A stretch of 64,000 bases of DNA from an uncultured Candidatus Saccharibacteria bacterium (GTDB lineage: Bacteria > Patescibacteriota > Saccharimonadia > Saccharimonadales > Saccharimonadaceae), in the NCBI GenBank assembly GCA_963543945.1, contig CAUUCN010000001.1, positions 1,118 to 65,117 of the forward strand. Reading direction: 5' to 3'. The first letter of the stretch is position 1. Every line of letters begins with the position of its first letter. This document shows positions 25,273 through 50,808 of the stretch, piece after piece. The position numbers and the translations under genes are program-made. The notes below the pieces were generated by a model. The model was not told the origin of the DNA. It worked only from the letters and a program-made list of their open reading frames with translations, and searched no databases.

Positions 25273-26160
25273 TTACATCACCTCCTTCATCGGACTTTTG
25301 TAATACTGGTGAACGAAATCAGACAGGTTTTTGAATTCGTAAGTCTTAGATGCTGATTCAAAGGCGGGCGTTAACTCTATAAAATTGGTAATCATGTAGA
25401 GTTGCTCGTCAAAATCAGGTGTTCGAAATACTTCTTTTGGTAGTACCTGTATAATAGAATCAAGTGGTGGCAGTTGATAATGCTCATCTTCTCGCATAGC
25501 GCGCAAAGCTTTATTGATCATCTCGTGTACTTCACTTGATCGAATTTCGAGTGCCCGGGCAATTTGATTAATTTTCCAGGGTTCATGAATGTCGATACCA
25601 AAAAATAGATCAAGACAATTGAAAAAATCTTCTGGGAAGCGTTTTAAAACTTCCATGACGCGATTGACTTCACGGTCAGAAAGTACGACAAAGTTTTCGT
25701 AAGCTTGATTACTACTGAACAAGGCATCTTTACTGCAGATTAGCTGGCTGGCTTCTGATAGATCATGATAAACCATCTGATAGAGCTTATGCACCGCAAA
25801 GGTGTCTTGAGTATTGGCTGGAGTGAGGCCTTTACGAATGTATCCCTCATCTAGCAAGACCTGCCAGAAACTGCGACGCCATTTAGCATGTTTTTTGCTA
25901 GGAGAAAGTTCATTATAAAAAACCTCTCTAGCCTGTAAAACTAAGACTTCACCAGGTATTTTGGCTTCTTCGTGTGCACGAATTACGTGGCTTAAAAGAC
26001 AATTTTCGTAACTCACGGTGGTGATGCCATATTCGCAGCCGGGTTGATCACGAGACTGACATTCGTCAGCCCAGTGAATGGTGTAGCGGCCAAGCTCTGG
26101 TAAAAGCTCGGCTAGATTACTCTGATTTACTTGCTTACAAACTTGTTCACTAATTAGCAT
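25273..26160 (-). CDS. Family A1: protein with sigma70 region-4-like HTH
   Basis: VLSDREVNRVMEVL...LFFGIDIHEPWKINQIARALEIRSSEVHEMINKALRAMRE resembles sigma70 region 4; EGYIRKG block shared with A3 and A4. Confidence 0.65.
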   Translation of the reverse strand: MLISEQVCKQVNQSNLAELLPELGRYTIHWADECQSRDQPGCEYGITTVSYENCLLSHVIRAHEEAKIPGEVLVLQAREVFYNELSPSKKHAKWRRSFWQVLLDEGYIRKGLTPANTQDTFAVHKLYQMVYHDLSEASQLICSKDALFSSNQAYENFVVLSDREVNRVMEVLKRFPEDFFNCLDLFFGIDIHEPWKINQIARALEIRSSEVHEMINKALRAMREDEHYQLPPLDSIIQVLPKEVFRTPDFDEQLYMITNFIELTPAFESASKTYEFKNLSDFVHQYYKSPMKEVM

Positions 26161-26255
26161 AAAAAATCCCCCTCTTTTTTAAGTTTTCAGTTACCCACAA
26201 ATTGTCAAAAAACGATTTAATTCAGAGAAATCAAAAAATGAACTAAATCTATATA

Positions 26256-26284
26256 ATTCTACCATAAAAAGTATAAAATGTCAA
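26256..26284 (-). promoter_or_regulatory. Sigma70-type promoter TTGACA-17-TAGAAT (TGg extended) for the A1 operon
   Basis: Minus-strand read: TTGACAttttatactttttatggTAGAAT. Confidence 0.65.
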
Positions 26285-26329
26285 AAAAGGTATGGACAAA
26301 TAATATGAGTTATGTTATTATAATGCCAG

Positions 26330-26764
26330 CGCTAGACGAGCTCTTTTATAAACAGGAATGGGAACTTAACCAAGGTTAAGGACGCCTCGCAAGCTGAATT
26401 AACCCAAATACTTATTTTAGCGTCAAGTCACACACTTTGGAGAAGAAGTACATACACTTCGACCTGAAAGACAGATCGAAACGCTAGTAGGCGGAAGCCT
26501 GTGTGAACTCACAGATTTTCGTTGAGAGATTAAGTAGATCTGCTCTAGATGGCACGTCGTTGGTCGAGTGTTTTGAGCTACGTAGCGCAAAAAATAACCG
26601 TATAATAGTTTTTGCCTAAAAAGTAACCCGTTCCCATTCCCTGTTTGCTCTACACCTTACCGTACAGGTAGTACGGAGCCCACCGCTCGCTTAGTAGCGG
26701 AACGTAACTTACCTTCTTGATCACTTCTATGGTCAAGGCTCCCGGCATTGTCGGGAGTTTTTTA
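26330..26764 (+). ncRNA. Candidate novel structured RNA (~435 nt), class unknown
   Basis: Sits in a 700-nt stretch with no ORF of 60 aa or more. TATAAT at 26319-26324 and terminator CTCCCG..CGGGAG plus T7 at 26739-26764. Long-range complements 26350-26365/26630-26646 and 26329-26343/26575-26588, plus at least six local hairpins including a GGAA tetraloop. Confidence 0.55.
26739..26764 (+). terminator. Intrinsic terminator ending the candidate RNA
   Basis: CTCCCG-gcattgt-CGGGAG followed by TTTTTTT. Confidence 0.75.
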
Positions 26765-26891
26765 TTGGCGAGAAATAACGCTTGAGGATGTAAAAATAAC
26801 AGGGGTGTGATAGAATGAGGCTAGAAAGTTAGCTTTGGTTAAAGTACATTGAAAATTAGTGCTTAGATTTATCTCATTGGGGGGTGAAAAA

Positions 26892-28567: not shown

Positions 28568-28597
28568 TAAAAAGCCCCTAGATAGGGGCTAGATTTT
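28568..28597. terminator. Bidirectional hairpin terminator
   Basis: AGCCCCTA/TAGGGGCT perfect arms flanked by an A-run and a T-run; overlaps the A2 stop codon. Confidence 0.6.
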
Positions 28598-29257
28598 CGT
28601 TAGATAAGGTTGGATTTTTTTGAGCGCGGACTTGAGGTGGCGATCAGTCTGAGTGAGAAGTAAACCTTCATTGACTGCGGTTTCACGCAAATTATGAATG
28701 TTATCACCTTGCAAGCCGAAGCTAAAATTGACGACGCGATACTCACGTTTGGTCAACTCACGCTGTAAAACCCGCTGAATGTTTTCGAGGTGCTTGAGTT
28801 CTTTCTGACTTCTCTCGAGATCAATACAAATATCTTCCTCATAGAGCTGATTCCAGTCGTGGACGGTGAGAATTTTGGCGCGATCGGTGAGTTGATAATT
28901 ATGAGCCTTTCTGGTGATTCTGGGGTCACGATATTCCAAAATTAAAGGTTCATAGTCGTCGCCGTAAACCGTACGATAGAGATAATACATGCCGATGATT
29001 CTGGAATCGATGTTTCGACAAATTAAGTGATTGTATTCAAAAATTTCCATACAGATCTTGAGCGAATGCGGAATGTTCCGAATGACTCCGGGATGATATT
29101 GCTCCATGTAATAGAGGTAGCGGCAATCCCAGATCAAATGCTCTACGGTTTCATAATTGCGTTCGACATAATTTTTAACATTACCATCAACTAGATGATA
29201 ATAGCCGAGCTGGCTTAAACTGTCGACTTTCCAAGCTTTACTAACTTCATTTTTCAT
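28589..29257 (-). CDS. Family A2: HhH (alpha-CTD-like) plus sigma70 region-4-like protein
   Basis: N-terminal LSQLGYYHLVDGNVKNYVERNYETVEHLIW; C-terminal REYRVVNFSFGLQGDNIHNLRETAVNEGLLLTQTDRHLKSALKKIQ; GGAGGGG Shine-Dalgarno. Confidence 0.7.
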   Translation of the reverse strand: MKNEVSKAWKVDSLSQLGYYHLVDGNVKNYVERNYETVEHLIWDCRYLYYMEQYHPGVIRNIPHSLKICMEIFEYNHLICRNIDSRIIGMYYLYRTVYGDDYEPLILEYRDPRITRKAHNYQLTDRAKILTVHDWNQLYEEDICIDLERSQKELKHLENIQRVLQRELTKREYRVVNFSFGLQGDNIHNLRETAVNEGLLLTQTDRHLKSALKKIQPYLTKI

Positions 29258-29318: not shown

Positions 29319-29346
29319 ATTATAAACTAAATAATGAGTTTGTCAA
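29319..29346 (-). promoter_or_regulatory. Sigma70-type promoter TTGACA-16-TATAAT for A2
   Basis: Its -35 box is one arm of the inverted repeat TTTGTCAAT-n7-ATTGACAAA shared with the divergent promoter. Confidence 0.6.
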
Positions 29347-29355
29347 TGTTTTAGA

Positions 29356-29384
29356 TTGACAAAATGGGTTAAATATTATAGAAT
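29356..29384 (+). promoter_or_regulatory. Sigma70-type promoter TTGACA-17-TAGAAT for 29467..29976
   Basis: TTGACAaaatgggttaaatattaTAGAAT. Confidence 0.65.
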
Positions 29385-30038: not shown

Positions 30039-30686
30039 TTAGATTGTGTAAATAATTTTACTAAGTTCAATTTTCTTCAAGATCTCCTTCTCCTGCTTTT
30101 TAGCCTCTGGAATGGTTAGTTTAAATTCTGCAGCGGTTTGCGCTAGGGTGTGAGTCCGGTGTTTATTGAAGCCAAAGCGATAGTCGAAATACTTCATTTC
30201 AGCCGCGGACAGATAGGTGCGAAGATTGGAGCGGAAAGTTTTGAGGGATTTTTTATAAAGAAGCACGTCATTTTCGTAAATTTTATTCCATTCCAGACAG
30301 CTTTGATCGTCTGGGCGGTTCGTTAAACGAAAACGATTGGATTTCTTACAAAATTCCGGTAAAAAACATTCCAGAATGACCGGTTCGTACTTATTGCCGA
30401 GTAACACACGTTTAAGATATTTAAGACCGAAGGAATCGGCGACAAAATCAGTACGGATATAACCTGCAGTATTTAAAGCACTGATGATTTCTGCGAAAAC
30501 TTTCGGGCGATAGGCTTTTAAAGTTTCTGGGTGATACTGCATCATATAGTACAGAAAACGTACGTGCCAAACCAATTGATCCATGGAGAAATAATTTTTC
30601 TCCACGTAACGTTCGGCGCGCTTACTAAGTCCGAGTCCGGAAACGGATTTCAGTGTAGACGCAGGTTTACATTTAGGTTTCTTCAT
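30039..30686 (-). CDS. Family A3: HhH (alpha-CTD-like) plus sigma70 region-4-like protein
   Basis: Start ATG 30686 (GGAGGT Shine-Dalgarno); VSGLGLSKRAERYVEKNYFSMDQLVW; AEMKYFDYRFGFNKHRTHTLAQTAAEFKLTIPEAKKQEKEILKKIE. Confidence 0.7.
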   Translation of the reverse strand: MKKPKCKPASTLKSVSGLGLSKRAERYVEKNYFSMDQLVWHVRFLYYMMQYHPETLKAYRPKVFAEIISALNTAGYIRTDFVADSFGLKYLKRVLLGNKYEPVILECFLPEFCKKSNRFRLTNRPDDQSCLEWNKIYENDVLLYKKSLKTFRSNLRTYLSAAEMKYFDYRFGFNKHRTHTLAQTAAEFKLTIPEAKKQEKEILKKIELSKIIYTI

Positions 30687-30720
30687 AGGCATTACCTCCA
30701 TGAGTGAATCTCGGATGAGA

Positions 30721-31194
30721 TTAGATGAAATGACGATTAATGTTCGGATATTGAAGTCTAGTGGCTAAATAATAACCTCGGGTGAGACTGAGCTTATTAA
30801 ATTTAGCCATATCCAGTAGCATATTGGACATATCATCACTGTAGTGATCGGCATAAAAATAATATTTATGCTGGTTTGTCGTGGTGGCACAGATTAATTC
30901 ATGCTCGACGCCACGACAATACTCTTTGGCTACGCGCTCAAAATGCGTGATGAGGCTAGTGAAAATTTCTTCACCATCCTTGAATCTAGGGTCGCCATAA
31001 ATCAAACCACCCAGGAGACATTTGCCGGAAATAGTTATTTCATGATCTTTAAGATGATGATAAAACCGGCTAAAGTCGATCATGACCTCCTGGCGATTAG
31101 GGTAACCATCCTTTTCTTCGAAAAAGAGTTGCCAATTTTTTAAAATGGCGATACTTTTTGCATGCGTATCGTGATGTATCAGGGGTGGTTTCAT
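30721..31194 (-). CDS. Hypothetical protein (first gene of the A3 operon)
   Basis: Start ATG 31194 (GAGGAGGA Shine-Dalgarno); 157 aa; no family recognised. Confidence 0.6.
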   Translation of the reverse strand: MKPPLIHHDTHAKSIAILKNWQLFFEEKDGYPNRQEVMIDFSRFYHHLKDHEITISGKCLLGGLIYGDPRFKDGEEIFTSLITHFERVAKEYCRGVEHELICATTTNQHKYYFYADHYSDDMSNMLLDMAKFNKLSLTRGYYLATRLQYPNINRHFI

Positions 31195-31278
31195 AATATC
31201 CTCCTCACAAGAAATGCACCTTAAAACATGGTAGGCAGGGTTCCAAAATTTTAAGGTGCGAGTAAAAACTACCTTTAT

Positions 31279-31307
31279 ATTATACAATGCGATAGCTTCT
31301 ATGTCAA
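31279..31307 (-). promoter_or_regulatory. Sigma70-type promoter TTGACA-17-TATAAT
   Basis: Minus-strand read: TTGACAtagaagctatcgcattgTATAAT. Confidence 0.65.
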
Positions 31308-31476
31308 TAAATAACAGGGGTGGAAGTGTTGAAATCGGGCGGAACTAACTAGGTTTCCTGTTCGGTTTTTGTCCCTTGACTTTCTTTTATTTTTATGTCA
31401 AAATATGAATATTGATTCAATAGTGAATCATGCTGGTTGTCCCGAGGGGGATAGTTCTTTGAAAGGAGATATCGGT

Positions 31477-31932
31477 ATGGGTATCAATGAAAATGGCAAT
31501 GAAAACAAAGGCTTGTCGGTCGACGAAAATTGCGACGCGAGGGTCTATCGGATTAAAGATGGACCATATTTATCGGAGCTTTTAGAAGGGTTTAAATTAG
31601 CTCATGATGAAGACTTGCGACCGCGCATTGAATTCCAGGTGGAAAATGGAAAATTCCAGGCGAATAAATGTTATGCGCAGGGAGAAGAGCTTCTTCTGGT
31701 GAAGGATTTTCAAATCCTAGAACTGAAATATTCTGGCCTTTCTTATGATTACGTAAAAGTAATTGGAAGATGTTTGGCTGACTTATCTAGTGCTTGCGAG
31801 GAAAAAGCGGTTTATACTAAGTATAAATTCGATGCGAACTATGATGTCAAAAGACGCACGGGTAGTATTAGCTTTACGAAATATGGCTTAATACGAAACC
31901 GTAATTTAATTAGTAATGCTGGAAATGAATAA
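31477..31932 (+). CDS. Family D1 hypothetical protein
   Basis: Start ATG 31477 (AAGGAG Shine-Dalgarno); IEFQV..., LSYDYVKVIGRC and KFDANYDVKRRTGSISF align with 37549..37929. Confidence 0.65.
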   Translation: MGINENGNENKGLSVDENCDARVYRIKDGPYLSELLEGFKLAHDEDLRPRIEFQVENGKFQANKCYAQGEELLLVKDFQILELKYSGLSYDYVKVIGRCLADLSSACEEKAVYTKYKFDANYDVKRRTGSISFTKYGLIRNRNLISNAGNE

Positions 31933-32141: not shown

Positions 32142-32801
32142 TTAGATGACGTCGAAGAGCTCACAGTCTTTGATATAGAAATAAGCTTTCTTCATCAGGC
32201 CACGGACTTTGCTAATCTTACGATTAAGTTTCAGCGCGGTCTCAGCAGTAGGGTGACACTTACCGTCCTCGAGTGAATACCGAAAACAAATAATCTGGTA
32301 AGTCAACTCGTTAGGTAAAATGTCTCTTAGAATCTGCCGGATTTCCTCACGCTGTTTTTCGGTGAGCGGTATGAAATTTTCATATCTTTGATTACCATAA
32401 ACGTAGTCAGATTGGTCGGAACTTCCCTGTTCCGGATTGATTTCGCAAAAATCTTCGAGATCAGCGGCGCAATTCCAAGCTTGATATTGCTCGGGTTTGG
32501 CCAGTCTACGAAGCCGATTGAGGATAAAATCCTCGGGCTTGATGTCGTGTCGAATGTAGCCGGCACGATCAAAAGCGACGTAGGCATCCCAAAGTGGCTT
32601 CTCGAGATAACTACTGTTCTCTGGGTGATGTTCTCTAAGGTAGGCTTCGTGGCGAACCTTCCAGAGCAGTTCACTCGTGGTGCCAAATTTGTTACTAAGG
32701 TAACTCTCAGTATGCTTACTGAGGCCTAAGTTACAGATGTGGTCAAGCAGGTTAGCAGATTTAACTGTCGTCTTTTCGATGGTGTTAGTTTCATGTTTCA
32801 T
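32142..32801 (-). CDS. Family A4: HhH (alpha-CTD-like) plus sigma70 region-4-like protein
   Basis: ICNLGLSKHTESYLSNKFGTTSELLW; LTYQIICFRYSLEDGKCHPTAETALKLNRKISKVRGLMKKAYFYI; AGGAGGG Shine-Dalgarno. Confidence 0.7.
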   Translation of the reverse strand: MKHETNTIEKTTVKSANLLDHICNLGLSKHTESYLSNKFGTTSELLWKVRHEAYLREHHPENSSYLEKPLWDAYVAFDRAGYIRHDIKPEDFILNRLRRLAKPEQYQAWNCAADLEDFCEINPEQGSSDQSDYVYGNQRYENFIPLTEKQREEIRQILRDILPNELTYQIICFRYSLEDGKCHPTAETALKLNRKISKVRGLMKKAYFYIKDCELFDVI

Positions 32802-33069: not shown

Positions 33070-33522
33070 TTAATGTGGGATATAGAAATCGGCATAACCG
33101 AGGTCATGCATGGCCTGGATGATTTCCTGAATGGAAACTTTGCCGAGATTACGAATCCTACCCCAATCGATTGAGTCAAGCGATAAAACATCTTGAATGG
33201 TATTGATATTACGATTTCTTAGGCAGTGATAAGGCCTAGGCTTGAGATTCAAGATATCGATACTGGCGTGGCCGGGATCGTTCTTAATCAGGTACTTAGA
33301 AGCCATAGTGGCTGGCTCGCTGGTGCCTTGACTAAGTTTTTGAAGCTCGATTAAGATATGATCACGCGTCTTAATCTCCTCTGTCTGCTGAAGCTTTTTC
33401 AGGGCTAGTTTAAGTGCAGCTTCTTGACGACAGGCGGCGGAAGCGGAGATCGCTTGATGTGCCTCGACGAGGTCACGAAATTTCATCAAATCTGTTCCAT
33501 GGTTAGTAATGTGTTCGGTCAT
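33070..33522 (-). CDS. Family A5: stand-alone RNA polymerase alpha-CTD-like protein
   Basis: Start ATG 33522 (AGGAGGGG Shine-Dalgarno); IDILNLKPRPYHCLRNRNINTIQDVLSL...IRNLGKVSIQEIIQAMHDLGY matches the alpha-CTD double-HhH pattern. Confidence 0.7.
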   Translation of the reverse strand: MTEHITNHGTDLMKFRDLVEAHQAISASAACRQEAALKLALKKLQQTEEIKTRDHILIELQKLSQGTSEPATMASKYLIKNDPGHASIDILNLKPRPYHCLRNRNINTIQDVLSLDSIDWGRIRNLGKVSIQEIIQAMHDLGYADFYIPH

Positions 33523-33577
33523 AGTTCCCCTCCTATGTGTGAAATGTGCAATGTGTATAAAATAATACAATAATTAT

Positions 33578-33665: not shown

Positions 33666-34499
33666 TTAAGTGAAATCTTTTTCTCTATCCGTGAAAATGT
33701 TGGGGAAATACTCTAGGATAAACTTTAGATCAACGATGAAATAATTGGTTGGATTGGCATATTTAGATAACTTGTACCTGTTGATTAATTTACCGCCATT
33801 AACATAGATAGCAGCAAGAATTAGCCATCCTACTGGGGTTTCGTATTCTATGTTCTCGCAAAAAGATTTTTGAACTAATTGCTCAATATCACCGCCAGCT
33901 GGTAAAAAGCTTCTCCGAATAAACTGATCGAAGGTGTAGTCTTGATAATGGAATTCACGTTCAATTTCACTGAGCTTGACGTTATGGATGAAATCGTGTA
34001 GCGATACAGCTTTTGGTAGATCAGCCAGAGTTTTGCCAGAATCTAGACTAAGGTAACGACAGTAGTTAAGACGTATCCAGGGTTTAACGTACTCACTAGG
34101 CTCGATACCAATACTTGACCATTTGTCAGGCGAAGAACTGACGATATCGTCGACAGTGCTTTTAATCGAAAAAAGTTTTATTTTATCGATAAACATGGTG
34201 GGAATAATCCTACTGATTATACTGCGAATTTGTTCTGAGGTAATACCAAGAGTATAAAAGAAGCTGAGTATCTTAAATAGGTTATCTGGATACTCTGCAT
34301 TACTCAAGATATAATCTTCAGATAATTCAAAGGCGGTTTGTACGGAAACGCCATTAATGATCAAGTCATTAATCTCGTCGAGCGAACAAGTCTCGAGATT
34401 ATAATGACGAGCAATTTGGTCCATATCGGCATCTTGTGAATGCAGATATTGTAAATCTACCTTGTCTGATTCGATCTTTTCTTTTCTAAAAATGTTCAT
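33666..34499 (-). CDS. Family B1 hypothetical protein
   Basis: 277 aa; SLDEINDLIINGVSVQTAFELSEDYILSNAEYPDNLFKILSFFY nearly identical to B2; shared C-terminal blocks with B2 and B3. Confidence 0.7.
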   Translation of the reverse strand: MNIFRKEKIESDKVDLQYLHSQDADMDQIARHYNLETCSLDEINDLIINGVSVQTAFELSEDYILSNAEYPDNLFKILSFFYTLGITSEQIRSIISRIIPTMFIDKIKLFSIKSTVDDIVSSSPDKWSSIGIEPSEYVKPWIRLNYCRYLSLDSGKTLADLPKAVSLHDFIHNVKLSEIEREFHYQDYTFDQFIRRSFLPAGGDIEQLVQKSFCENIEYETPVGWLILAAIYVNGGKLINRYKLSKYANPTNYFIVDLKFILEYFPNIFTDREKDFT

Positions 34500-34733: not shown

Positions 34734-35771
34734 ATGACAGAGTGTGAGGTAGAAGAATTGATTCAAAAATTCCATGCTATTTTAGAGCCAGATTTTCCAG
34801 AATGGCTGCAGGAGTATATTGAAACACCAGTTTTACAGAAGCAGAAGTATATTAGTACGACTTGCGGAACGATTTATTCAGATTTGTTTGAAAATCAGAG
34901 ATTTTATTCAAGTTTAGATCATGCGGTAGGGGTGGCGTTGATAGTTTGGCACTTTACTCATGACAAAAAACAGACTTTGGCGGGGCTTTTTCATGATATT
35001 GCGACACCAGTTTTTAAGCATTGTGTGGATTTTATGAATGGTGACCACCAAGCGCAGGAATCGACAGAGGATTTGACGACGGAGATGATCGCAGGGTCGC
35101 CGGAAATTAGGCGCTTGCTTAAGTGGGATGGTATTTTAGTTTCCGAGGTAGACAATTATCATTTGTATCCGATTGCAGATAACGATACACCGAAGTTATC
35201 AGCGGATCGTTTGGAATATTCACTGGCGAATATGTTGTTCGCGTATGGGGTGACGGATTTGGCGGAAATTCGTGAAATATATGCGGATATTGTAGTGCAA
35301 TCAGACGAAAATGGAGTGAAAGAATTGGGATTTCAAACGAAAAAAATCGCACGAAAATTTGTTAAACTAACTTCGCAACTATCTATGTTTTATCGCGAGG
35401 ATCGAACGCGCTACTCAATGCAGTTTCTTGCCGATATTTTGAAGAAAATGAGTGAATCTAAAAGGATTTCGGTGGCAGATTTATATCAAATGAAAGAATC
35501 GGAAGTGATTGAAATGATTTTAGCTTCAGATTATGGTGATGCTTTTTTGGCTTGGCAGAAGGCAAAGAAAATAAAGAAGGCAAAGAGTCTTGAGCAATGC
35601 CCGGACGGAGTGTACGTAGTGAACTGCCAGGCGAAAGTGCGCTATATTGATCCGTTATGGCAAGGTGAACGGATGTCGAAAGCTTGTAAAATTGCAAAGG
35701 GTTATATTGAAAAAAATTTGGCCTATAAAATGGAGGGATATCTGTATCTGCCAGGGGTAAAATTAACATAA
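34734..35771 (+). CDS. HD-domain phosphohydrolase
   Basis: SLDHAVGVALIVWHF...LAGLFHDIATPVFKH; TATAAT-7 nt-ATG start. Confidence 0.7.
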   Translation: MTECEVEELIQKFHAILEPDFPEWLQEYIETPVLQKQKYISTTCGTIYSDLFENQRFYSSLDHAVGVALIVWHFTHDKKQTLAGLFHDIATPVFKHCVDFMNGDHQAQESTEDLTTEMIAGSPEIRRLLKWDGILVSEVDNYHLYPIADNDTPKLSADRLEYSLANMLFAYGVTDLAEIREIYADIVVQSDENGVKELGFQTKKIARKFVKLTSQLSMFYREDRTRYSMQFLADILKKMSESKRISVADLYQMKESEVIEMILASDYGDAFLAWQKAKKIKKAKSLEQCPDGVYVVNCQAKVRYIDPLWQGERMSKACKIAKGYIEKNLAYKMEGYLYLPGVKLT

Positions 35772-35811: not shown

Positions 35812-36903
35812 TTAGTGAGCTGATTCATTCTCCATGAATTCTTTGGCGAAAATATAGTCTTGCCCAGTATAGTGTGATGGGTCGCCACACTCAAGCAACA
35901 TTTTTCGATTGATTAATTTGCTGCCAGAATCACTGAGATAAGCTAAGACAAGCCAATCGATTGGGTCTTCAGGCTGCATTCTTGCGTAATTAGCTTCTTT
36001 GGCTAATTCTTCAATGTCACCCCAAGCTGGCAGGTAATTACATTTAATGAACTGCTTCATGGTTAGGCCACGGTAATTGACTTTGCTCATAATAAACGGA
36101 AGTCCAGTATGGTGAATGAAATCACGTATAGAGACGGGATCTGGTAGATTAGCTAGAGTTTTCCCAGGCTCTATGTCGAGATAATCATCACAGTGAAGAA
36201 GAATCCAAGGTTTGGTGTATTCTCTAGGTTTAATGCCAATACTAATCCACCTACCAGATGAACCCTCAATGATGTCGTCGATAAGATCAGTAATGTATAG
36301 CAGATTTGATCCATCAATGAATCGCACTGGAATGATTTTGTTAATCATTTTACGAATTTGTCCCGAATCAATACCATGAGCGTAAAAGAAATTGAGTATC
36401 TTAAATAGAGTGTCTGGATACTCCGCACTACTCAAGATGTAATCTTCGGATAAATCAAACGTAGTTTGGACAGAAACACCATTAATGATCAGGTCGTTAA
36501 TCTCATCGAGCGAATAAGGCTCGAAGCCATCGTGAATTACGATTTCATCCATATCCGCACCTAAGGAATACAGGCGGTGTAGGTTTATCTTGCTGCATTC
36601 TACGGGTATTGAGCTGGCAATTTGATTAATATCTAAATGCGCGCCGGCATTTTGGAGTGCTTCAAACTGCTCAATAACGTCTAATGGATGTAAAACTTGA
36701 ACGATTTCTCCCATATCAACACCTGCATCATGTATTTTAGGCCAATACTTGGCCAGAATTTTGTAGGCTGAACTCAATTTTTTCTCATTTTCCGATTCCT
36801 GAATGCATTTTTTTAAGACTGGGAAAATATCATACCAGAATTTTTGATTAAATTTTTCACGGGTGGCTACTACCAATGCTTTTAAGATGCCAATAATATT
36901 CAT
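35812..36903 (-). CDS. Family B2 hypothetical protein
   Basis: Start ATG 36903 (AGGAGGGG Shine-Dalgarno); helical G(A/V)D(M/I)..I repeats; core ~85% nt identity with B1. Confidence 0.7.
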   Translation of the reverse strand: MNIIGILKALVVATREKFNQKFWYDIFPVLKKCIQESENEKKLSSAYKILAKYWPKIHDAGVDMGEIVQVLHPLDVIEQFEALQNAGAHLDINQIASSIPVECSKINLHRLYSLGADMDEIVIHDGFEPYSLDEINDLIINGVSVQTTFDLSEDYILSSAEYPDTLFKILNFFYAHGIDSGQIRKMINKIIPVRFIDGSNLLYITDLIDDIIEGSSGRWISIGIKPREYTKPWILLHCDDYLDIEPGKTLANLPDPVSIRDFIHHTGLPFIMSKVNYRGLTMKQFIKCNYLPAWGDIEELAKEANYARMQPEDPIDWLVLAYLSDSGSKLINRKMLLECGDPSHYTGQDYIFAKEFMENESAH

Positions 36904-36919
36904 TTTACCCCTCCTTGAA

Positions 36920-37264
36920 TTAATCATTGAATAATAAGCCGACGTATTGATACTTATGTGGTGGTTGAGATTTAAAAACATTGTAGTCAAAATCACTAAC
37001 ATCCAGCAGTTCAAAACGATATTTCTGCTTAGCATTAGGATATTTGATCGGGTCTAATTCCTCGAAAAATTCCGCGTACGGACGAACGTAGAGTTGCAGA
37101 TCACCATAAAGCGCCAAATAAACAACGTATCGCTCCCCCTTGTCTGGATTTTTCTTATTTGGCTTAATAGCGACATCGACGAGCAGGTAGGATTCACCCT
37201 CAAAATGATGGTAAATACCGCGAGTTTTACAGCGTGGGTTGTGGACGAATTCTTTTTCTTCCAT
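36920..37264 (-). CDS. DUF1653-like protein
   Basis: GIYHHFEGESYLLVDVA...ERYVVYLALYGD..LYVRPYAEFFEE...YRFELL matches my recollection of the DUF1653 pattern. Confidence 0.6.
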   Translation of the reverse strand: MEEKEFVHNPRCKTRGIYHHFEGESYLLVDVAIKPNKKNPDKGERYVVYLALYGDLQLYVRPYAEFFEELDPIKYPNAKQKYRFELLDVSDFDYNVFKSQPPHKYQYVGLLFND

Positions 37265-39573: not shown

Positions 39574-39627
39574 GTTTTCCCCTTTCATTTTGTAAAAGAA
39601 CGTGTAATAGATACAAAGTTTCCATTT

Positions 39628-39656
39628 ATTATCACATGAGATGCTTATTTTGTCAA
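39628..39656 (-). promoter_or_regulatory. Sigma70-type promoter TTGACA-17-GATAAT for B3
   Basis: Exact 17-nt spacer. Confidence 0.6.
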
Positions 39657-39735
39657 AATAAGCGTAGATGGAGAGCATAAAAGGTGGCTATGATTTTTTG
39701 TGAAGAGGCGGGGTTTATGAAGCATAAGCTTATAG

Positions 39736-42072: not shown

Positions 42073-43104
42073 CTAGGCGCCAAGCCGATTAAGATTGGTG
42101 GTTTCAATGCGTGGAATGGAAGTAGATTCTGGTGAAATATCCGTGGTGTCAATTTCGGTTTCAGCAAATTGATCGCAAAGTTTAACCAGATATCGACCAC
42201 GCTTCAGGGTGGTGACCCACTTTTCTGGAATACTTTTGAGTCCATAATGAATACCAGCGAGCGAACCAGTGAGAGCGCCGACCGTATCGGTGTCATCGCC
42301 GAGATTAACCGCAGTAAGTACGGCATCTTGGAAGTTGTCAGTGGTCAGAAACGACCAAAGCGCTGCTTCTAGCGTATCGACTACATAGGCGCGAGAAGAG
42401 ATGAACCCCTTGGGATAGCGATAAATCTGATTTTTCAGAATTCGACTATATAGACTACGCTCTTCCGAATCAAACATACTGTAATCGTCTAGCTGGGTTT
42501 TGCGATAAGCTTCCTTGGGATTATCACCGCCTAATAAGTGGCAAACGAAATTAGTGTAAATCAGACAACCCAGCACGCTAATTGGGTGAGCGTGGGTGAG
42601 GGATGAAATATTTTTCACTAATTCGTAACGTTTTTCACCGGTGATTTGGTTGTTGTGACAAACAAAAGCTACTGGCAAGATGCGCATGAGTGATCCATTA
42701 CCGTTATTGGCGTAATGGCTCATACCACATTTGACGGGGTGTCCGCCAGCGAGATAAGTCTCAATCGCGCGTTTGCAGGTGCCGCCAATATCAAAAGTGA
42801 GCTTAGTAGCGGTGAATTCGTCTTGCAAATACCACTTGACAAAATTCTCCATAATGTCGTGATAATGGAAGCGTTTTTGGTCAATCAATGACTGCATCAG
42901 GCAGATGGTCATAGATGTATCGTCAGACCAAGTACCGGCAGGTTGATGATGGGTACCGACAGATAACATTTCGGTGACCGGCATGAGTTCTAGAAAATTT
43001 CGATTCAAAAACTCAATGGGCACCCCTAATGCGTCGCCAATAGCTAAGCCGATAAGGCCAGAACGAACTGCTTGCTTTATATCCTTTTTCTCTAAATGTA
43101 CCAT
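42073..43104 (-). CDS. ADP-ribosylglycohydrolase family protein
   Basis: GLAIGDALGVPIEF, WSDDTSMT and GDDTDTVGALTGSLAG motifs; AGGAGGAG Shine-Dalgarno. Confidence 0.85.
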   Translation of the reverse strand: MVHLEKKDIKQAVRSGLIGLAIGDALGVPIEFLNRNFLELMPVTEMLSVGTHHQPAGTWSDDTSMTICLMQSLIDQKRFHYHDIMENFVKWYLQDEFTATKLTFDIGGTCKRAIETYLAGGHPVKCGMSHYANNGNGSLMRILPVAFVCHNNQITGEKRYELVKNISSLTHAHPISVLGCLIYTNFVCHLLGGDNPKEAYRKTQLDDYSMFDSEERSLYSRILKNQIYRYPKGFISSRAYVVDTLEAALWSFLTTDNFQDAVLTAVNLGDDTDTVGALTGSLAGIHYGLKSIPEKWVTTLKRGRYLVKLCDQFAETEIDTTDISPESTSIPRIETTNLNRLGA

Positions 43105-43457: not shown

Positions 43458-44045
43458 TTAGAGATTTATTGTGATAATACCTCCTAGCTCATCTATAAGA
43501 GTCGCAAGGTGATGCTTGAGTTCTATCGGCACCGGTTTGTTTCTGATGAGACTAAAAACGGTGCGATAATACCAGAGAATATCTTGTTTAGAAGCATTGA
43601 AGCGCTGCCAAATTTCATCGCCAAACTTATCGTAATCTTTTAGAATGTCAGTCAGGTTATGTATTTTATCGGCGGTTGCGACAATGTAGGCCTCAATGTA
43701 GTAGGAATTGCCGAGGCGCTTCAGGTAACTTTCTTTACGTTCTTTCCAGGGAAGTTTGGGCTGACCGGCCGTTTTAGGTTCCGAAACATCTTTGACGATG
43801 TCGGTAATTTCATCACCAAAATCGCGACGCATGTCAGCCTCAGAATAGACAGCTGGATTGACATCTTCAAGTATATCGTGTAGGATCCCAGCGACAATTG
43901 TTGCTTCGTCGTTGGTATATTGACTAATAATCATGCCGACGGCGACAGGGTGGGAAATATATGGAAAATCGGTTCCCTTGCGGTTTTGACCTTGATGGGC
44001 CTTGGCGGCAATTTTAAGTGCGAGATTAATTTTGTCAGTAAACAT
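43458..44045 (-). CDS. RelA/SpoT-type HD-domain hydrolase (small alarmone hydrolase-like)
   Basis: Start ATG 44045; AHQGQNRKGTDFPYISHPVAVGMI...AGILHDILEDV is the (p)ppGpp-hydrolase HD signature; no synthetase domain. Confidence 0.8.
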   Translation of the reverse strand: MFTDKINLALKIAAKAHQGQNRKGTDFPYISHPVAVGMIISQYTNDEATIVAGILHDILEDVNPAVYSEADMRRDFGDEITDIVKDVSEPKTAGQPKLPWKERKESYLKRLGNSYYIEAYIVATADKIHNLTDILKDYDKFGDEIWQRFNASKQDILWYYRTVFSLIRNKPVPIELKHHLATLIDELGGIITINL

Positions 44046-44170
44046 AGATTCACCTAACCTTTCGTAATGTGTGCGGGTGACTGTTTGGTTAAAATTCCTC
44101 AAATTTTAAGGTGCAATAAATTCACCTCTCTCTCGAGAGGTGAAAGTTGTGTAGCAAATTTTTTCGTAAT

Positions 44171-44946: not shown

Positions 44947-45603
44947 ATGAATTTAAGGGAAGCTAAAACCTATATCTATATTGATGTTAGTAACATCCGT
45001 CACGCCTGCCTTTGGAGCTGCGGTTTTGTTCTTGATTTTATTAAATTATATAACTATCTTAAAGAGAAATATCCGAATGTTCAGGAAATTCGTTATTATG
45101 AAGGGATATCTTCTAGTGATAGTAAGAAAATGGAACATTTTCGATTTTTGAGTGAAAAAGTTGGATATAAGATTTGCTCACTTTCTAGAAAAAGCTATAT
45201 TGAACCACCAAAGTACGAAAAATATAGATGCGCGAATTGCGGGTCTCTAAATAATATAAAAGTACTTTCGAAAAATGTGAAATTAAAATCGAATATTGAT
45301 GTTTATTTGACATCGGATCTGCTGGAGTGTGTTGCAAGATCAAAGGACCCAATTAATATCATAATCCTTTCTTGTGATGGAGATTATGCCGAAGCAATTA
45401 AGGCAACTCTTCGATTGAGCCCCGATTCTTGTGTAACGGTTTTAGCTACACCAGTAACAGAAATAAATAATTGCCTATCAGTTAGATTAAAACAACTTAG
45501 TCGTGAGCTTGATCGAAGTAATTATAAGTTGTCAAATATAAATAATATTAGAGATTATGTTGCTCAGTCTTTTGAGGGCGGTAAGAATAAATTGAAAAAA
45601 TAA
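44947..45603 (+). CDS. NYN/LabA-like domain protein with an inserted zinc-ribbon-like CxxC pair
   Basis: IYIDVSNIRHA ... IIILSCDGDYAEAIK (NYN acidic motifs); YRCANCGS; TATATT-9 nt-ATG start. Confidence 0.65.
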   Translation: MNLREAKTYIYIDVSNIRHACLWSCGFVLDFIKLYNYLKEKYPNVQEIRYYEGISSSDSKKMEHFRFLSEKVGYKICSLSRKSYIEPPKYEKYRCANCGSLNNIKVLSKNVKLKSNIDVYLTSDLLECVARSKDPINIIILSCDGDYAEAIKATLRLSPDSCVTVLATPVTEINNCLSVRLKQLSRELDRSNYKLSNINNIRDYVAQSFEGGKNKLKK

Positions 45604-47224: not shown

Positions 47225-47551
47225 ATGAAAACATTTCGATTGTCTTCAAATGAAATCAAAATTTTAACGGATATGAAGGGTGGCTGTATTGCATCAGATA
47301 GAATTACTGTGGATGGGCAAAAAGTTGGCTACGCTTATCGAGAAGATCCAGATAAGAATTTTTCAAATGATAGTGGATGGAGATTTCTTGCTGGGGATGA
47401 AAGCGAGGAATATCTGAATAATCCTAACAATTTTGACGTATTTGAAATAAGCACTATCTGTAATTACGATCCGAATATTCTAGATATTTTAGACGGGAAA
47501 ATTGGCGAGTCTTATATTAGAGATAGTAATACATTTAAATTAGATTTTTAA
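47225..47551 (+). CDS. DUF2185 / Imm33-like immunity-type protein
   Basis: NDSGWRFLAGDESEEYLNNPNNFDVFEISTICNYDPNILDIL matches my recollection of the DUF2185 signature (DSGW.f..G.E). Confidence 0.6.
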   Translation: MKTFRLSSNEIKILTDMKGGCIASDRITVDGQKVGYAYREDPDKNFSNDSGWRFLAGDESEEYLNNPNNFDVFEISTICNYDPNILDILDGKIGESYIRDSNTFKLDF

Positions 47552-47759: not shown

Positions 47760-47934
47760 TACCTTCAAAACGTAGGAATTAACACCAACTTTGATCAAAG
47801 TGGGATACTTATGCAGGAAGCTTTCGTGCGTAGCTACCCCACTTTGCGAAAAGAGAGCTTTGGCTGGGGTTGTTCCGGGATGGTCCCGAACAAAATTTGA
47901 TTTTGCTAGGGCAAAAGCCCGGAGAGGAGTCCAT
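47692..47934 (+). promoter_or_regulatory. Long structured 5' leader of the high-GC gene
   Basis: -10 box TATAAT at ~47675-47680; hairpins GTTCCGGG...CCCGAAC and GGGC-aaaa-GCCC next to the Shine-Dalgarno. The 47864-47929 segment loosely resembles ykkC-type conserved blocks. Confidence 0.35.
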
Positions 47935-48267
47935 ATGAATATAATTAATTTGACGCCCCACACTGTGAACATCTGCACTGAGGATGGAGATATCGAGTGC
48001 TCGTTCAAATCTGAAGGTGTCGCTCGCGCAAGCCAGGTGGCAGTACCTTTCGGTGACGTCAATGGAATCGAGTTGGTCGAGATGCGTTTCGGCCCTACCG
48101 TTGATCTTCCTGACCCTGAGGCAGGTACCGTACTTATTGTATCTGCGATCACCGCAAGTGCCGCTAAGGCGGAAGGTCGTTCTACTGATGACCTGGTGCT
48201 TACAGCGGATACTGTCCGTGACAAGGATGGCCGTATCGTCGGCTGCAGGCGCTTCGCCCGCGTATAA
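47935..48267 (+). CDS. Family E2 hypothetical protein (high-GC copy)
   Basis: Start ATG 47935 (GGAGAGGAG Shine-Dalgarno); MNIINLTPHTV...TVLIVSAITASAAKAEGRSTDDLVLTADTVRDKDGRIVGCRRFA aligns with 38006..38347. Confidence 0.7.
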   Translation: MNIINLTPHTVNICTEDGDIECSFKSEGVARASQVAVPFGDVNGIELVEMRFGPTVDLPDPEAGTVLIVSAITASAAKAEGRSTDDLVLTADTVRDKDGRIVGCRRFARV

Positions 48268-48298
48268 GGGACCATCCCCCCTACCTACGTTATTTTAT

Positions 48299-48332
48299 AA
48301 CCCCGGTCTCTATGGCCGGGGTTTCCATTTTT
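48299..48332 (+). terminator. Intrinsic terminator
   Basis: AACCCCGG/CCGGGGTT stem followed by a T-rich tract. Confidence 0.7.
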
Positions 48333-48345
48333 ATCTTAAAGCATA

Positions 48346-48354
48346 TGCTATAAT
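48346..48354 (+). promoter_or_regulatory. Extended -10 promoter TGcTATAAT, 7 nt before ATG 48362 (leaderless-type)
   Basis: aTGcTATAATatgtaatATG. Confidence 0.55.
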
Positions 48355-48361
48355 ATGTAAT

Positions 48362-49747
48362 ATGAAAGACCCCAATGTGGTAAAAAATGAATCCGAAAAA
48401 GACTCTGATTATGATGCCGATTGGGGTGCTGGTTGGGGTAAAGTAGCGGCGTTAGCTAACAATCCAAATCTTAGTGAAGCATCATCTAAGGAGAATCCAG
48501 AAGATTCCGATGAATATGAGGAATCTGATGACTATGATAACGAAGACGACTACGACGACTATGACGATTACGATAGTGAGGATGATGGTTATGATCGTGA
48601 TGAGGATGCTTATGGTGATTATGATGACGGCTATGATAACTATGATGGCGAAGACGATGATTATGATCATGGCGAGGATGCGTATGGTGATTATGACGAC
48701 GATTATGATGACTATGACGATGATGATGATTACAATAGCTACTATAATGGCGACAACGAGCGCCTAGAGGTAAAAGAAGACGAATTAAAAATTCGAGAAA
48801 TACCTCTACCGGAAAATATCTTAAAAAGATATGATTTTATCGAGAAGTTACCTAGTGGTATTGCTATAATGGGTGGTGTGGCAAGGAGTGTAGCACGCGA
48901 GATTTTGACTGGTGAAAAAGAGCCAATCAGGGATATTGATCTTGTGGAAATTACTGATAATGAAGACGAAAGCACAGTCGACCCAGAGCTTCTCGATGAA
49001 TTAGCACAAACTTATATGCCAGATGATTATGCATTTGGCCATGGAATCGGACTAGACACCTTAGAAGATTATTTCTCTACACGCGACTTCACTATTAATG
49101 AATGCCTTATTAAGGACGGTAAGCTTCTCGTGAGTGAGTTAGCGGAAAATGATTTTAAGGAAAATATTATCAGACCAACTTATTATGAAGCCCCATATGA
49201 CGGAGATAAACTGTCGGGACGGCTTTTCTTGAAAGCGATACTGATGCAGACCGTGATATCGCAAATTTCTGAATCCATACCGTTACTTGAGGATGTTCAT
49301 GTGAATTTTCAATATATTGGCGATTTTGATACGGCAGTATTTCTTAATAAGGCGATGAGTCGCGGGGTAGAAACAGCGGTAAAATTTACAGAGAATCTTG
49401 CTGAATGGGGTGTAGTATACCCAGAATTTGCTGGTAGGCCTATGGCGCTTGCGAAAGATTTACTTACTAATGCATACAATTTTAAATTTAGACCATCTAC
49501 AGATGAAAGATTTCTAGAACCAGAAGAAGGTCGCGACATGAGCGGATTTTTTGTGCCAAAAGCTATGCAAGAATACCATTCATCCGATCCAGCAATAGCC
49601 CGAGCTATAGATGAGTATGATAGTGGCCCAGATTACAGTAATGATGATAATGATGGTGATAATAACGGTGAGCCAGTTTCGGGATATTATACACAGAAAG
49701 ATTACGATGAGATTAATTCGAGTGTGGATAGTCGTGACATAGAATAA
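48362..49747 (+). CDS. Class-II (CCA-adding / poly(A) polymerase-type) nucleotidyltransferase-like protein with N-terminal Asp/Tyr-rich tract
   Basis: Start ATG 48362; the longer ORF-track ORF reads through the upstream gene. GGVARSVAREILTGEKEPIRDIDL and EDYFSTRDFTINECL head-domain motifs; aa 46-132 are almost only D/E/Y/G. Confidence 0.65.
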   Translation: MKDPNVVKNESEKDSDYDADWGAGWGKVAALANNPNLSEASSKENPEDSDEYEESDDYDNEDDYDDYDDYDSEDDGYDRDEDAYGDYDDGYDNYDGEDDDYDHGEDAYGDYDDDYDDYDDDDDYNSYYNGDNERLEVKEDELKIREIPLPENILKRYDFIEKLPSGIAIMGGVARSVAREILTGEKEPIRDIDLVEITDNEDESTVDPELLDELAQTYMPDDYAFGHGIGLDTLEDYFSTRDFTINECLIKDGKLLVSELAENDFKENIIRPTYYEAPYDGDKLSGRLFLKAILMQTVISQISESIPLLEDVHVNFQYIGDFDTAVFLNKAMSRGVETAVKFTENLAEWGVVYPEFAGRPMALAKDLLTNAYNFKFRPSTDERFLEPEEGRDMSGFFVPKAMQEYHSSDPAIARAIDEYDSGPDYSNDDNDGDNNGEPVSGYYTQKDYDEINSSVDSRDIE

Positions 49748-49950
49748 AATCTAAAATTATAGAACTTGTTCTAGTATAATATGTACAAGTAGATCTCCTA
49801 TTTACGTTTGTTGTTATTCTTAAGTATGGATCTACCTATTTTTATTGACAAGATTCCGCCAATATTTGTTACAAAGGTCCTGGATCTTAACGTTGCTTAT
49901 GAAATAAGCCCCGCCGAAGCGAGAGCTTTAATCAAAGAGCATAGGCTGTT

Positions 49951-50808
49951 TTACAAACTGCTTATTTTTTCGATCATCTCTTCTATAGAACGGCGGCTAA
50001 AATTGCGGAACTTGGTTAAATCAGCATTCCTTGCCTCCTCAATTGTATTGATTCCGGCGTGTCTCAGACAGCTATAAGTGCGAGTAGATAAGTTGAGCAC
50101 TTCAATTGGACCGTCGACAGGTGCTGTCCTTCCGTATTTTTGTTCATAATACTCGAGAATTATCTTTGCAACAGATAACCCTCCCTCTGTTGCCAATAAA
50201 CGCGACTGAAGCTCTAATCTGCTCACCATTAGCAATCCCAATTGTCGTTTTATTCTCGGACGCCTAAGTTTTATTTTTGCTTTTGCCAGAATTTGCTTAA
50301 TGTATCCTCTGGTAGAGCAATATTTCTGAGCAATCTCTTCAAGAGACATACGCTCGCAGCCTAATCCGTAGTGAAGCTTTAAAATTGCGTTTTCCTTCTC
50401 AAATAAACTTGAGCAAAGGATACTATAAAGGCAATTTTTCTGATCATCCGTCATTGGATTTTCCCAAAAATGGTTGATTAATTCGGGGCGATTATTAATG
50501 GCAAAATCGACCAGAAAGTACTCTTCGTTGGGAATCTTCGTGCGCAAATCAAACTTGTTGATTAATTCGGAGCGATTATCATTGGCAAAAATATCAACCA
50601 AAAAATATTCCTCGTTGGAAAGCTTCGTGCGTAAACCATGCTTTTCCAATACTTCTTTGATTTCCTTAGCTTTTTTGGGACCGATTCCACGGATACCAGT
50701 GAGATTATCATAGCATGAACAAAGTGCAAGAGATTCGAGCGAATCAAACAGTGTAGTTGCAATAATTTTCTCGATTGACGGGTTACCTAAAAGATTAAGA
50801 TTCATCAT
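49951..50808 (-). CDS. Family A6: HhH plus internal 28-aa duplication plus sigma70 region-4-like plus alpha-CTD-like protein
   Basis: LTGIRGIGPKKAKEIKEVL; ENAILKLHYGLGCERMSLEEIAQKYCSTRGYIKQILAKAKIKLRR; IEVLNLSTRTYSCLRHAGINTIEEARN...FRNFSRRSIEEMIEKI. Confidence 0.75.
   Translation of the reverse strand: MMNLNLLGNPSIEKIIATTLFDSLESLALCSCYDNLTGIRGIGPKKAKEIKEVLEKHGLRTKLSNEEYFLVDIFANDNRSELINKFDLRTKIPNEEYFLVDFAINNRPELINHFWENPMTDDQKNCLYSILCSSLFEKENAILKLHYGLGCERMSLEEIAQKYCSTRGYIKQILAKAKIKLRRPRIKRQLGLLMVSRLELQSRLLATEGGLSVAKIILEYYEQKYGRTAPVDGPIEVLNLSTRTYSCLRHAGINTIEEARNADLTKFRNFSRRSIEEMIEKISSL
50473..50643. repeat. In-frame tandem duplication (84 + 87 nt) inside A6
   Basis: gttgattaattcgg(g/a)gcgattat... 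repeated with period 84 nt; encodes LRTK(L/I).NEEYFLVD...N(D)NR.ELIN.F twice. Confidence 0.85.

Follow-up and report, generated by a model that had tools for sequence, protein, structure and literature searches.

Saccharibacteria proteins combining alpha-CTD-like and sigma region 4-like domains as putative free-standing transcription regulators

Little is known about how transcription is controlled in the Candidate Phyla Radiation, whose ultra-small epibionts encode few recognisable regulators. A 64,000-nucleotide stretch from an uncultured Candidatus Saccharibacteria bacterium (contig CAUUCN010000001.1, positions 1,118 to 65,117; hereafter the window) raises the question of what proteins made wholly of the promoter-recognition domains of RNA polymerase may be doing outside the polymerase. 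Six open reading frames (ORFs) of the window, named A1 to A6, had been described in an earlier note as six paralogs joining segments similar to the alpha subunit's C-terminal domain in RNA polymerase (alpha-CTD) and to sigma-70 region 4, and had been imagined as acting on a host polymerase at the TTGACA-rich promoters of an island. All six were confirmed at the positions listed in Table 1, every one on the minus strand. The analysis presented here places A1 to A4 in a conserved, multi-copy and unannotated family, and leads us to give about even chances to the view that A1 to A6, built from RNA polymerase modules, regulate transcription as free-standing proteins that bind DNA in a sequence-specific manner.

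Domain composition of the family

Taken individually, A1 to A4 gave no Pfam match, and NCBIfam returned weak similarities (E 0.003-0.03), all of them to the region 4 end of RpoD and SigK models. An exhaustive hmmsearch of a three-sequence profile of A2 to A4 against 1.84 billion representative proteins matched 176 protein clusters at E <=1e-3, 57 of them at E <=1e-10. The weakest matches covered the sigma region 4 part only, and annotated sigma-70 factors appeared among them at E ~1e-6 (P0146 from Faecalibacterium, 2.9e-6, P0138 and P0147), which ties A2 to A4 to real sigma region 4 with statistical significance. When 79 members were aligned, Sigma70_r4 was recognised in 50 (best E 9e-19), aligned with the C-termini of A2 to A4 (around residues 150-203), and RNA_pol_A_CTD in 43 (best E 3.5e-51), at the extreme C-terminus of long forms of 330-360 aa. 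Domain hidden Markov models (HMMs) built from the family sorted the approximately 150 matches listed into 58 proteins with an N-terminal domain (N-domain) followed by sigma region 4 and 53 that add an alpha-CTD to these two, besides a few having two or three alpha-CTDs. The status of A3 as an ORFan, which came from a word-indexed search that had returned only near-identical orthologues, was overturned by the exhaustive profile search. The sole 'distant' match with A3 in the word-indexed search was a gene fragment from L003 (GCA_015473185.1, BNJV01002344.1), which is the same island in a public assembly ridden with frameshifts, where genes have been called as fragments.

The proposal that A2 to A4 end in a segment resembling sigma region 4 was thus borne out, and structural comparisons agreed with it. 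In a PDB sequence search with the A2-A4 profile the best matches were sigma region 4, in register, at E values that alone are non-significant (E >=0.05). An AlphaFold model of full-length A3, obtained from a shallow alignment, had a mean predicted local distance difference test score (pLDDT) of 64, reaching approximately 70-88 in the two domains; the top 50 PDB matches found for it by Foldseek were all sigma factors, and isolated sigma region 4 domains superposed on it at 2.1-2.3 A over 57 residues, the match at 2.1 A having a target-normalised template-modelling (TM) score of 0.75. Region 4 of the family includes the RFGL-DG insertion typical of RpoD and SigA. A1 keeps the region 4-like part, as had been supposed, with weak matches to RpoD region 4. 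None of A1 to A6 matched Sigma70_r2 (PF04542) or GerE (PF00196) in Pfam at E up to 1, nor the alpha N-terminal domain families RNA_pol_L and RNA_pol_A_bac, and the statement that these are not ordinary sigma factors, as they carry no region 2, therefore stands.

The N-domain is characterised by the motif L.EL.LS...GR..AY...K...EL..ALD.AG.IR.D....F....LY, after which come N..YE and sigma region 4. A2 to A4 fit this layout over their full length, while in A1 the N-terminus aligns with no more than the latter half of the N-domain profile (E 5e-13). No Pfam match was obtained over the N-domain in any family member. A profile of 78 N-domains aligned by hhalign with the alpha-CTD profile of the family at 96% probability (E 3.5e-9), over 62 columns that represent the entire alpha-CTD with one insertion of approximately 7 residues; in controls, 20 column shuffles gave E >=0.08 and the comparison of the N-domain with the sigma region 4 profile gave 0.34. 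In 7 members, a direct match of the alpha-CTD HMM to the N-domain was obtained as well (E 1e-4 to 2e-2). The A3 N-domain modelled alone from 41 sequences reached a pLDDT of 89.7 and a predicted TM score of 0.77, and five of its eight PDB matches were E. coli RNA polymerase alpha or alpha-CTD, the best one being 3n97_B (target-normalised TM 0.55 over 74 columns), with no sigma domain among them; a search of BFVD with the same domain gave nothing. Tau-tubulin kinases, which headed the matches of the N-domain profile in the PDB sequence search, were discarded as a chance fit of AGFIRHDI..SF to the kinase HRD loop. On these grounds the N-domain is probably of alpha-CTD type, in a divergent form to which one more C-terminal helix has been added, a relationship well supported by the profile-profile comparison and suggested by the fold. 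The alpha-CTD-like character that had been attributed to the LGLSKR-type start of A2 to A4 is thus supported by the profiles, but A2 lacks the literal LGLSKR (it reads LGYYHLVDGN) and the fold match, although the best in the set, falls short of significance.

A5 and A6 carry domains that Pfam recognises directly. In A5, RNA_pol_A_CTD (PF03118) was found with E 3.7e-13 (49.4 bits, cutoff 23.8), confirming its description as a stand-alone alpha-CTD-like domain, and NCBIfam models of rpoA matched both linker and CTD; these models match only by their C-terminal 60-110 positions and far under cutoff. The tail of 34 long forms, that is, helical linker plus alpha-CTD, aligned with A5 over 108 columns (hhalign, E 9e-23), so that A5 can be regarded as a free-standing tail module of the family. 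In A6, the three segments reported to lie in one chain were all recovered by Pfam: RNA_pol_A_CTD (6.6e-16, 58.2 bits, cutoff 23.8), Sigma70_r4 (PF04545; 3.1e-7, 30.2 bits, cutoff 24.1) and, at the borderline, the helix-hairpin-helix (HhH) family HHH_5 (27.1 bits, cutoff 27). Sequence comparison of A6 with solved structures gave RNA polymerase alpha chains (9e-10) and SigA region 4 (2e-5), and its N-terminal HhH aligned with the second hairpin of the alpha-CTD 1doq (E 0.003). The linker of A6 between HhH and sigma region 4 contains a 28-aa tandem duplication (LRTKLSNEEYFLVDIFANDNRSELINKF / DLRTKIPNEEYFLVDFAINNRPELINHF; residues ~59-114, nt 50467-50634); most A6 orthologues have 256-257 aa, a length consistent with a single linker copy.

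As for the relationships among the six, BLASTP linked A2, A3 and A4 to one another (4e-31 for A2/A3, 6e-21 for A3/A4, and 5e-5), and A1 joined them by profile (hhalign of the A2-A4 profile with A1, E 1.3e-5 over 145 columns). The A2-A4 profile showed no significant similarity to A5 or A6, and what A5 and A6 have in common is the alpha-CTD only (5e-10). A6 matched the sigma region 4 profile of the family (3.4e-11) and the alpha-CTD part of the tail (1.9e-16), with no match to the tail linker or the N-domain profiles. Given that genuine sigma factors score at least as well as A6 with the sigma region 4 HMM of the family, and that both N-domain and tail linker are missing, A6 is placed in a lineage of its own, in which HhH, sigma 4 and alpha-CTD follow one another in an analogous way. 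In terms of sequence, then, A1 to A4 are true paralogues, and A5 and A6 are related to them at the module level only, which reduces the six paralogs originally counted to four. The 33 homologues of A6 (61-99% identity) have the same three Pfam domains and are not syntenic: one lies beside integrase and Fic genes and type IV secretion pilins, another between S-adenosylmethionine synthetase and queuosine genes.

Named members of the family elsewhere are labelled 'hypothetical protein [Candidatus Saccharibacteria bacterium]'. P0190, which has sigma region 4 and alpha-CTD without the N-domain, is encoded on a contig with Agr/LytTR genes and so probably does not come from a Saccharibacterium. No characterised regulator class claims the family in Pfam, NCBIfam, PHROGs or PADLOC, where only domain-level sigma and alpha matches were obtained (in PHROGs, the generic sigma factor profile alone, for A6 and P0041). 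Neither the architecture nor the N-domain family was found in these collections or in the literature searched, and an earlier mention may exist. The family thus appears to be lineage-specific and centred on Saccharibacteria, with known domains in a seemingly undescribed combination. Three of the weakly matching proteins, P0162, P0138 and P0152, consist of sigma region 4-like domains repeated in tandem, with 11 copies over 938 aa, 7 over 721 aa and 5 over 528 aa, and one of them is annotated as a sigma factor. A phage origin was considered and rejected: IMG/VR yielded nothing in pattern-limited scans, whether the family alignment or P0041 served as query, and matches in PHROGs and PADLOC were at the level of sigma region 4 only. 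One A6 orthologue is located on a 5.3-kb contig labelled as viral, which has no hallmark genes.

Recognition helices, charge and conservation

Residues were compared with E. coli reference sequences and are given in E. coli numbering. Over the 79 aligned members, the commonest residue at each base-contact position of region 4.2 is that of sigma-70 (T583, R584, E585, R586, R588 and Q589), and the consensus recognition helix, TRERVRQIE..ALRKL, is the housekeeping one; P0041 and some other members keep a helix of this type, reading VTRERVRQIEAKALRKL. In A1 to A4 almost all of the TTGACA-reading residues are replaced by four unrelated helices, IRSSEVHEM in A1, LLLTQTDRH in A2, LTIPEAKKQ in A3 and RKISKVRGL in A4, each nearly invariant among 10-18 orthologues; the corresponding helix of A6 is CSTRGYIKQ. 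Different helices that are fixed among orthologues are what one would expect if paralogous transcription factors had each acquired a specificity of their own. Since A1 to A4 lack the residues that read TTGACA, the action at such promoters put forward in the earlier note is unlikely for them, while it would be plausible for members that keep the housekeeping-type helix, such as P0041. The best-conserved positions of the sigma region 4 domain, in the same numbering, are L551, E555, V558, F563, G564, I565, A594 and L598. A5 and A6 retain the arginine equivalent to R265 and the second hairpin of alpha-CTD. Net charge is +17 in A3 and +7 in the sigma region 4 domain of A6, both of them strongly basic, and -13 in A1.

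Orthologues of A3 with 94-99% identity were found in 19 GTDB species representatives, in genomes labelled Candidatus Saccharibacteria, Candidatus Nanosynbacter or TM7 oral taxon 351, and homologues with 28% identity in Candidatus Nanosyncoccus. The scan of genomes was pattern-limited, and this taxonomic range is a lower bound. A4 is the closest of A1 to A4 to the Nanosyncoccus homologues (31% identity, E 1.5e-25, to a protein of locus L024). The order A5-A4-A3-A2-A1 was kept wherever contigs were long enough, with synteny extending over about 19 species-level genomes, and no further copies of the family were detected in the window by scanning with the domain HMMs, which include the window's own sequences. 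Ratios of nonsynonymous to synonymous substitutions (dN/dS) against orthologues were 0.18 for A1, 0.03 for A2, 0.05 for A3, 0.08 for A4 and 0.16 for A5, showing that A1 to A5 are real, functional genes under strong purifying selection.

The locus and its intergenic DNA

The host is an oral, parasitic Candidatus Nanosynbacter (Saccharibacteria/TM7), and the A5-A1 cluster is a conserved and syntenic piece of its chromosome. The idea of an island in the sense of a foreign element acting on a 'host polymerase' is therefore abandoned. A1 to A6 lie within a 27-kb ORFan-rich stretch bounded by tRNA genes, flanked by ordinary chromosomal genes (ribosomal protein L1, arginine deiminase, DcuC, MgsA, GH97 and a pseudouridine synthase). 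The features of this region are collected in Table 1; the start codon is ambiguous for A5 alone. Two tight gene pairs are formed by A1 and A3 with unannotated ORFs located at 3 and 19 nt, respectively, and A1, A2 and the A3 operon are each head to head with one ORFan gene.

Table 1. Features of the region in the coordinates of the window, except for the L024 entry.
Feature	Coordinates	Strand	Size	Content
A1	25273..26160	-	295 aa	Divergent member; partial N-domain (~residues 56-132); sigma region 4-like domain (~residues 149-233); 60-aa C-terminal extension without alpha-CTD
A2	28589..29257	-	222 aa	Short form; alpha-CTD-like N-domain, residues ~8-101 (nt 28955-29236); linker with N..YE; sigma region 4-like domain, residues ~138-220 (nt 28598-28846)
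A3	30039..30701	-	220 aa	Short form; alpha-CTD-like N-domain, residues ~12-100 (nt 30402-30668); linker; sigma region 4-like domain, residues ~137-215 (nt 30057-30293)
A4	32142..32801	-	219 aa	Short form; N-domain, residues ~13-100 (nt 32502-32765); sigma region 4-like domain, residues ~136-215 (nt 32157-32396)
A5	33070..33522 or 33070..33570	-	150 aa (ATG at 33522) or 166 aa (TTG at 33570)	Helical linker; alpha-CTD, residues 85-139 (nt 33106-33270)
A6	49951..50808	-	285 aa	HhH, residues 10-55 (nt 50644-50781); sigma region 4, residues 134-182 (nt 50263-50409); alpha-CTD, residues 231-283 (nt 49960-50118)
ORF paired with A1	24667-25269			Unannotated
ORF paired with A3	30721-31287			Unannotated
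ORFan family member	33666-34499	-	277 aa	Adjoins A5
ORFan family member	35812-37035	-	407 aa	
ORFan family member	38482-39678	-	398 aa	
ORFan family member, L024	8636-9730			
Paralogue pair	31369-31932 / 37516-37929		187 / 137 aa	E 1e-9
Paralogue pair	38006-38347 / 47791-48267		113 / 158 aa	E 6e-10
Paralogue pair	34734-35771 / 43458-44102			Both HD-domain proteins
Conflict-type gene	42073-43104			ADP-ribosylglycohydrolase (5e-75)
Conflict-type gene	43458-44102			HD_4 phosphohydrolase
Conflict-type gene	44947-45603			NYN nuclease-like protein
Conflict-type gene	47225-47551			Imm33 immunity protein (2e-32)
ORF convergent with A6	47984-49747	+	587 aa	Long acidic low-complexity D/Y/E stretch (DDYDDYDD...)
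Inverted TTGACA pair	29341-29361			Two boxes 9 bp apart
Candidate non-coding RNA	26293-26768	+	~445 nt	In the 698-bp gap between A1 and the 291-aa gene
tRNA-Trp	22570			Bound of the ORFan-rich stretch
tRNA-Thr/Tyr	51321-51527			Bound of the ORFan-rich stretch

A second family of ORFan paralogues adjoins A5 (277, 407 and 398 aa; E 3e-86 to 5e-15), with no match in Pfam or PDB. In Candidatus Nanosyncoccus a homologue of this family comes immediately before a member of the alpha-CTD-like/sigma 4 family, which indicates that the neighbourhood is conserved across genera. Further paralogue pairs and several conflict-type genes are present in the same region, and no cognate toxin was identified for the latter; the 587-aa ORF convergent with A6 had no Pfam match.

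The TTGACA richness that had been noticed is real: the hexamer occurs 1.0 time per kb in the island, compared with 0.24-0.49 per kb in its flanks, and its density in intergenic DNA is 3.4 per kb. A near-consensus TTGACA-17-TATAAT in the right orientation was located in every gap where a promoter is expected, including those upstream of all six genes, and in none of the convergent gaps. The richness is explained by the many short transcription units, each with a near-consensus promoter of housekeeping type, and is no evidence for a special promoter class. Between A2 and a divergent 169-aa gene, the two promoters set a pair of TTGACA boxes in inverted orientation (TTGTCAATGTTTTAGATTGACAA), which would be a natural site for a reader of -35-like hexamers.

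A candidate structured non-coding RNA was also observed in the gap between A1 and the 291-aa gene. Its sequence features include a promoter-like TGGACA-17-TATTAT and a terminal GC hairpin with a U-run after it; its fold z-score is -2.85, and it contains no ORF longer than 55 aa and has no Rfam match. Hardly any variation was seen over the 5' ~220 nt when 13 distinct orthologous sequences were compared, and a 16-bp long-range helix around an insert of variable length shows 7 compensatory pairs, mostly from one sequence.

Possible functions and comparison with known systems

With neither sigma regions 2 and 3 nor the alpha N-terminal assembly domain, these proteins are neither sigma factors nor alpha subunits built into the core. 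In our preferred reading the family was put together out of duplicates of those two RNA polymerase modules by which the upstream half of the promoter is read. Its members have, in this order, a divergent alpha-CTD-like HhH N-domain, a linker with the invariant N..YE and a region 4 of primary sigma type (4.1 plus the 4.2 helix-turn-helix, HTH), and long forms continue with a helical linker followed by between one and three canonical alpha-CTDs. The HTH of sigma region 4 would read a hexamer-like site, and the flanking alpha-CTD-type domains could either bind A/T-rich minor groove next to it, in the manner of the ternary complex seen in PDB 3N97, or make contact with RNA polymerase. The ancestral helix being of the housekeeping TRERVRQIE type, the holoenzyme should meet competition at TTGACA/UP sites from members that have retained this helix, and the distinct helix fixed in each of A1 to A4 suggests four distinct targets. 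These plausibly include the divergently transcribed ORFan genes interleaved with them; the head-to-head arrangement and the presence of the same ORFan neighbours in Nanosyncoccus point to local targets. The basic character of A3 and of the sigma region 4 domain of A6, as well as the R265-equivalent arginine retained in A5 and A6, would also fit regulators that bind DNA. A5 could supply an alpha-CTD tail in trans or act alone, and the acidic A1 may have lost DNA binding and work through protein contacts. We hold only tentatively, as a possibility that is somewhat unlikely as a whole, the fuller scheme in which Saccharibacteria would have made an expandable regulator family out of detached, duplicated promoter-reading modules, their assembly on DNA being a polymerase-free copy of the alpha-CTD/sigma 4/UP/-35 arrangement, with ancestral members competing with the holoenzyme at consensus promoters, A1 to A4 re-targeted, and A5 serving as a shared partner in trans.

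Several results weigh against the reading as free-standing DNA-binding regulators. The fold match of the N-domain to alpha-CTD is not significant alone (Foldseek E >=3.2), and the PDB hmmsearch with the N-domain profile was not significant either (E 0.79 for the alpha-CTD entry 1doq). The arginine equivalent to R265 has disappeared from the N-domain in both A2 and A4, and there is an insertion in the second hairpin, so this domain may no longer bind DNA. A1 and its sigma region 4 domain are acidic, and phylogenetic footprinting resolved no shared operator motif, the reason being that intergenic DNA is about as conserved as coding DNA in the available genomes. In addition, a region 4 that is not tethered to a sigma factor could equally be a protein-binding domain targeting the beta-flap. 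Modulators that bind RNA polymerase, with the sigma 4-like domain on the beta-flap tip replacing or rivalling housekeeping region 4, the alpha-CTD-like domains engaging alpha or sigma, and promoter preference retuned as a result although the protein is no classical DNA-bound factor, are an alternative to be considered, although an unlikely one in our opinion. The best-conserved sigma region 4 positions belong to the core and the 4.1/4.2 surface and not to the base-reading residues, as would be expected of flap binders, but they are also simply the hydrophobic core of the fold; the replaced -35-reading residues of A1 to A4 and the acidity of A1 would likewise fit, and phages do have flap-binding factors with a single HTH (PMC7824862). 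However, a free domain would have to outcompete the tethered sigma region 4 without an AsiA-like remodeller, helices that are fixed among orthologues and specific to each paralogue are more easily explained by distinct DNA targets, and no phage or defence context was found in IMG/VR (pattern-limited scans), PHROGs, PADLOC or BFVD.

It seems improbable that the spare alpha-CTD and sigma region 4 copies act as decoys or guards that absorb or sense toxins or phage effectors, such as ADP-ribosyltransferases modifying alpha-CTD. The tRNA-bounded region does hold an ADP-ribosylglycohydrolase, Imm33, HD and NYN proteins and expanded ORFan families, and one A6 orthologue adjoins integrase, Fic and type IV secretion genes; yet PADLOC gives no system match beyond one to MzaA at the level of sigma region 4, the A5-A1 cluster is stable and under strong purifying rather than diversifying selection, and the N-domain has diverged too far from alpha-CTD to mimic its native surface. 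Equally to be discussed, and no less improbable, is a split sigma factor in which the sigma region 4 protein and a separate region 2-like partner would steer RNA polymerase to special promoters. The tight pairing of A1 and A3 with unannotated ORFs would provide candidate partners, but no Sigma70_r2 similarity was detected in 20 ORFs of the island, these two included (Pfam, E up to 0.01), and the N-terminal half is alpha-CTD-like and not similar to regions 2 or 3, its model having no sigma match in PDB. Chance resemblance, or decaying fragments without function, could have been suspected from the failure of A1 to A4 in individual Pfam searches and from a word-indexed search that found only orthologues; it is refuted, to the point of being negligible, by the 176 profile matches, the low dN/dS (0.03-0.18), the synteny and the confident domain models. 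Should the DNA-binding alternative be true, the family would represent a new evolutionary route to transcription factors, with polymerase parts working in trans, and would offer direct access to the way oral Saccharibacteria regulate their genes; if the proteins bind polymerase, they would be the cellular equivalent of what phages do when they replace sigma region 4.

Among known systems, the use of a sigma 4-like HTH as the DNA-reading head of ordinary transcription factors is found in the effector domains of LuxR/GerE/FixJ proteins, but the sequence affinity of A1 to A6 is to primary sigma region 4 and not to the LuxR branch. SigO-RsoA of B. subtilis is a two-subunit sigma factor with a separate region 2-like partner. 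The sigma region 4 of A6 matches the C-terminal sigma 4 of MzaA, the sigma-70 protein of the MZA anti-phage system (NCBIfam NF041931 and PADLOC; E 9e-9 and 3e-6), although the match covers approximately 60 residues of models with 683-726 positions and no other MZA components are present here. T4 gp33 and minimal phage sigmas, which bind the flap through one HTH (PMC7824862), share with the family a stand-alone sigma 4-type HTH and the lack of region 2; they are, however, phage-encoded flap binders, whereas A1 to A6 are chromosomal and carry alpha-CTD-type domains, and comparison of A1 to A6 with these families in PHROGs gave no match beyond the generic sigma-factor profile.

The closest likenesses are to the polymerase itself. 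With region 4 (PF04545) of primary (group 1) sigma-70 factors the family shares homologous 4.1 and 4.2 HTH segments and a consensus helix of housekeeping type, but its region 4 comes without regions 1.2-3, and thus without core binding by region 2 or recognition of the -10 element, and in A1 to A4 the base-contacting residues are replaced. As to RNA polymerase alpha, bona fide alpha-CTDs are present in A5, A6 and the long forms, and the N-domain of the family would be a divergent relative, distinguished by the insertion of ~7 residues in the second hairpin, the extra C-terminal helix (AGYIRHDI..SF....LY) and the poor conservation of the R265 position; without the alpha N-terminal domain, A1 to A6 are not assembled into the polymerase. 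The same two modules that lie side by side on promoter DNA in the alpha-CTD/sigma 4 complex 3N97 are in this family joined in one polypeptide.

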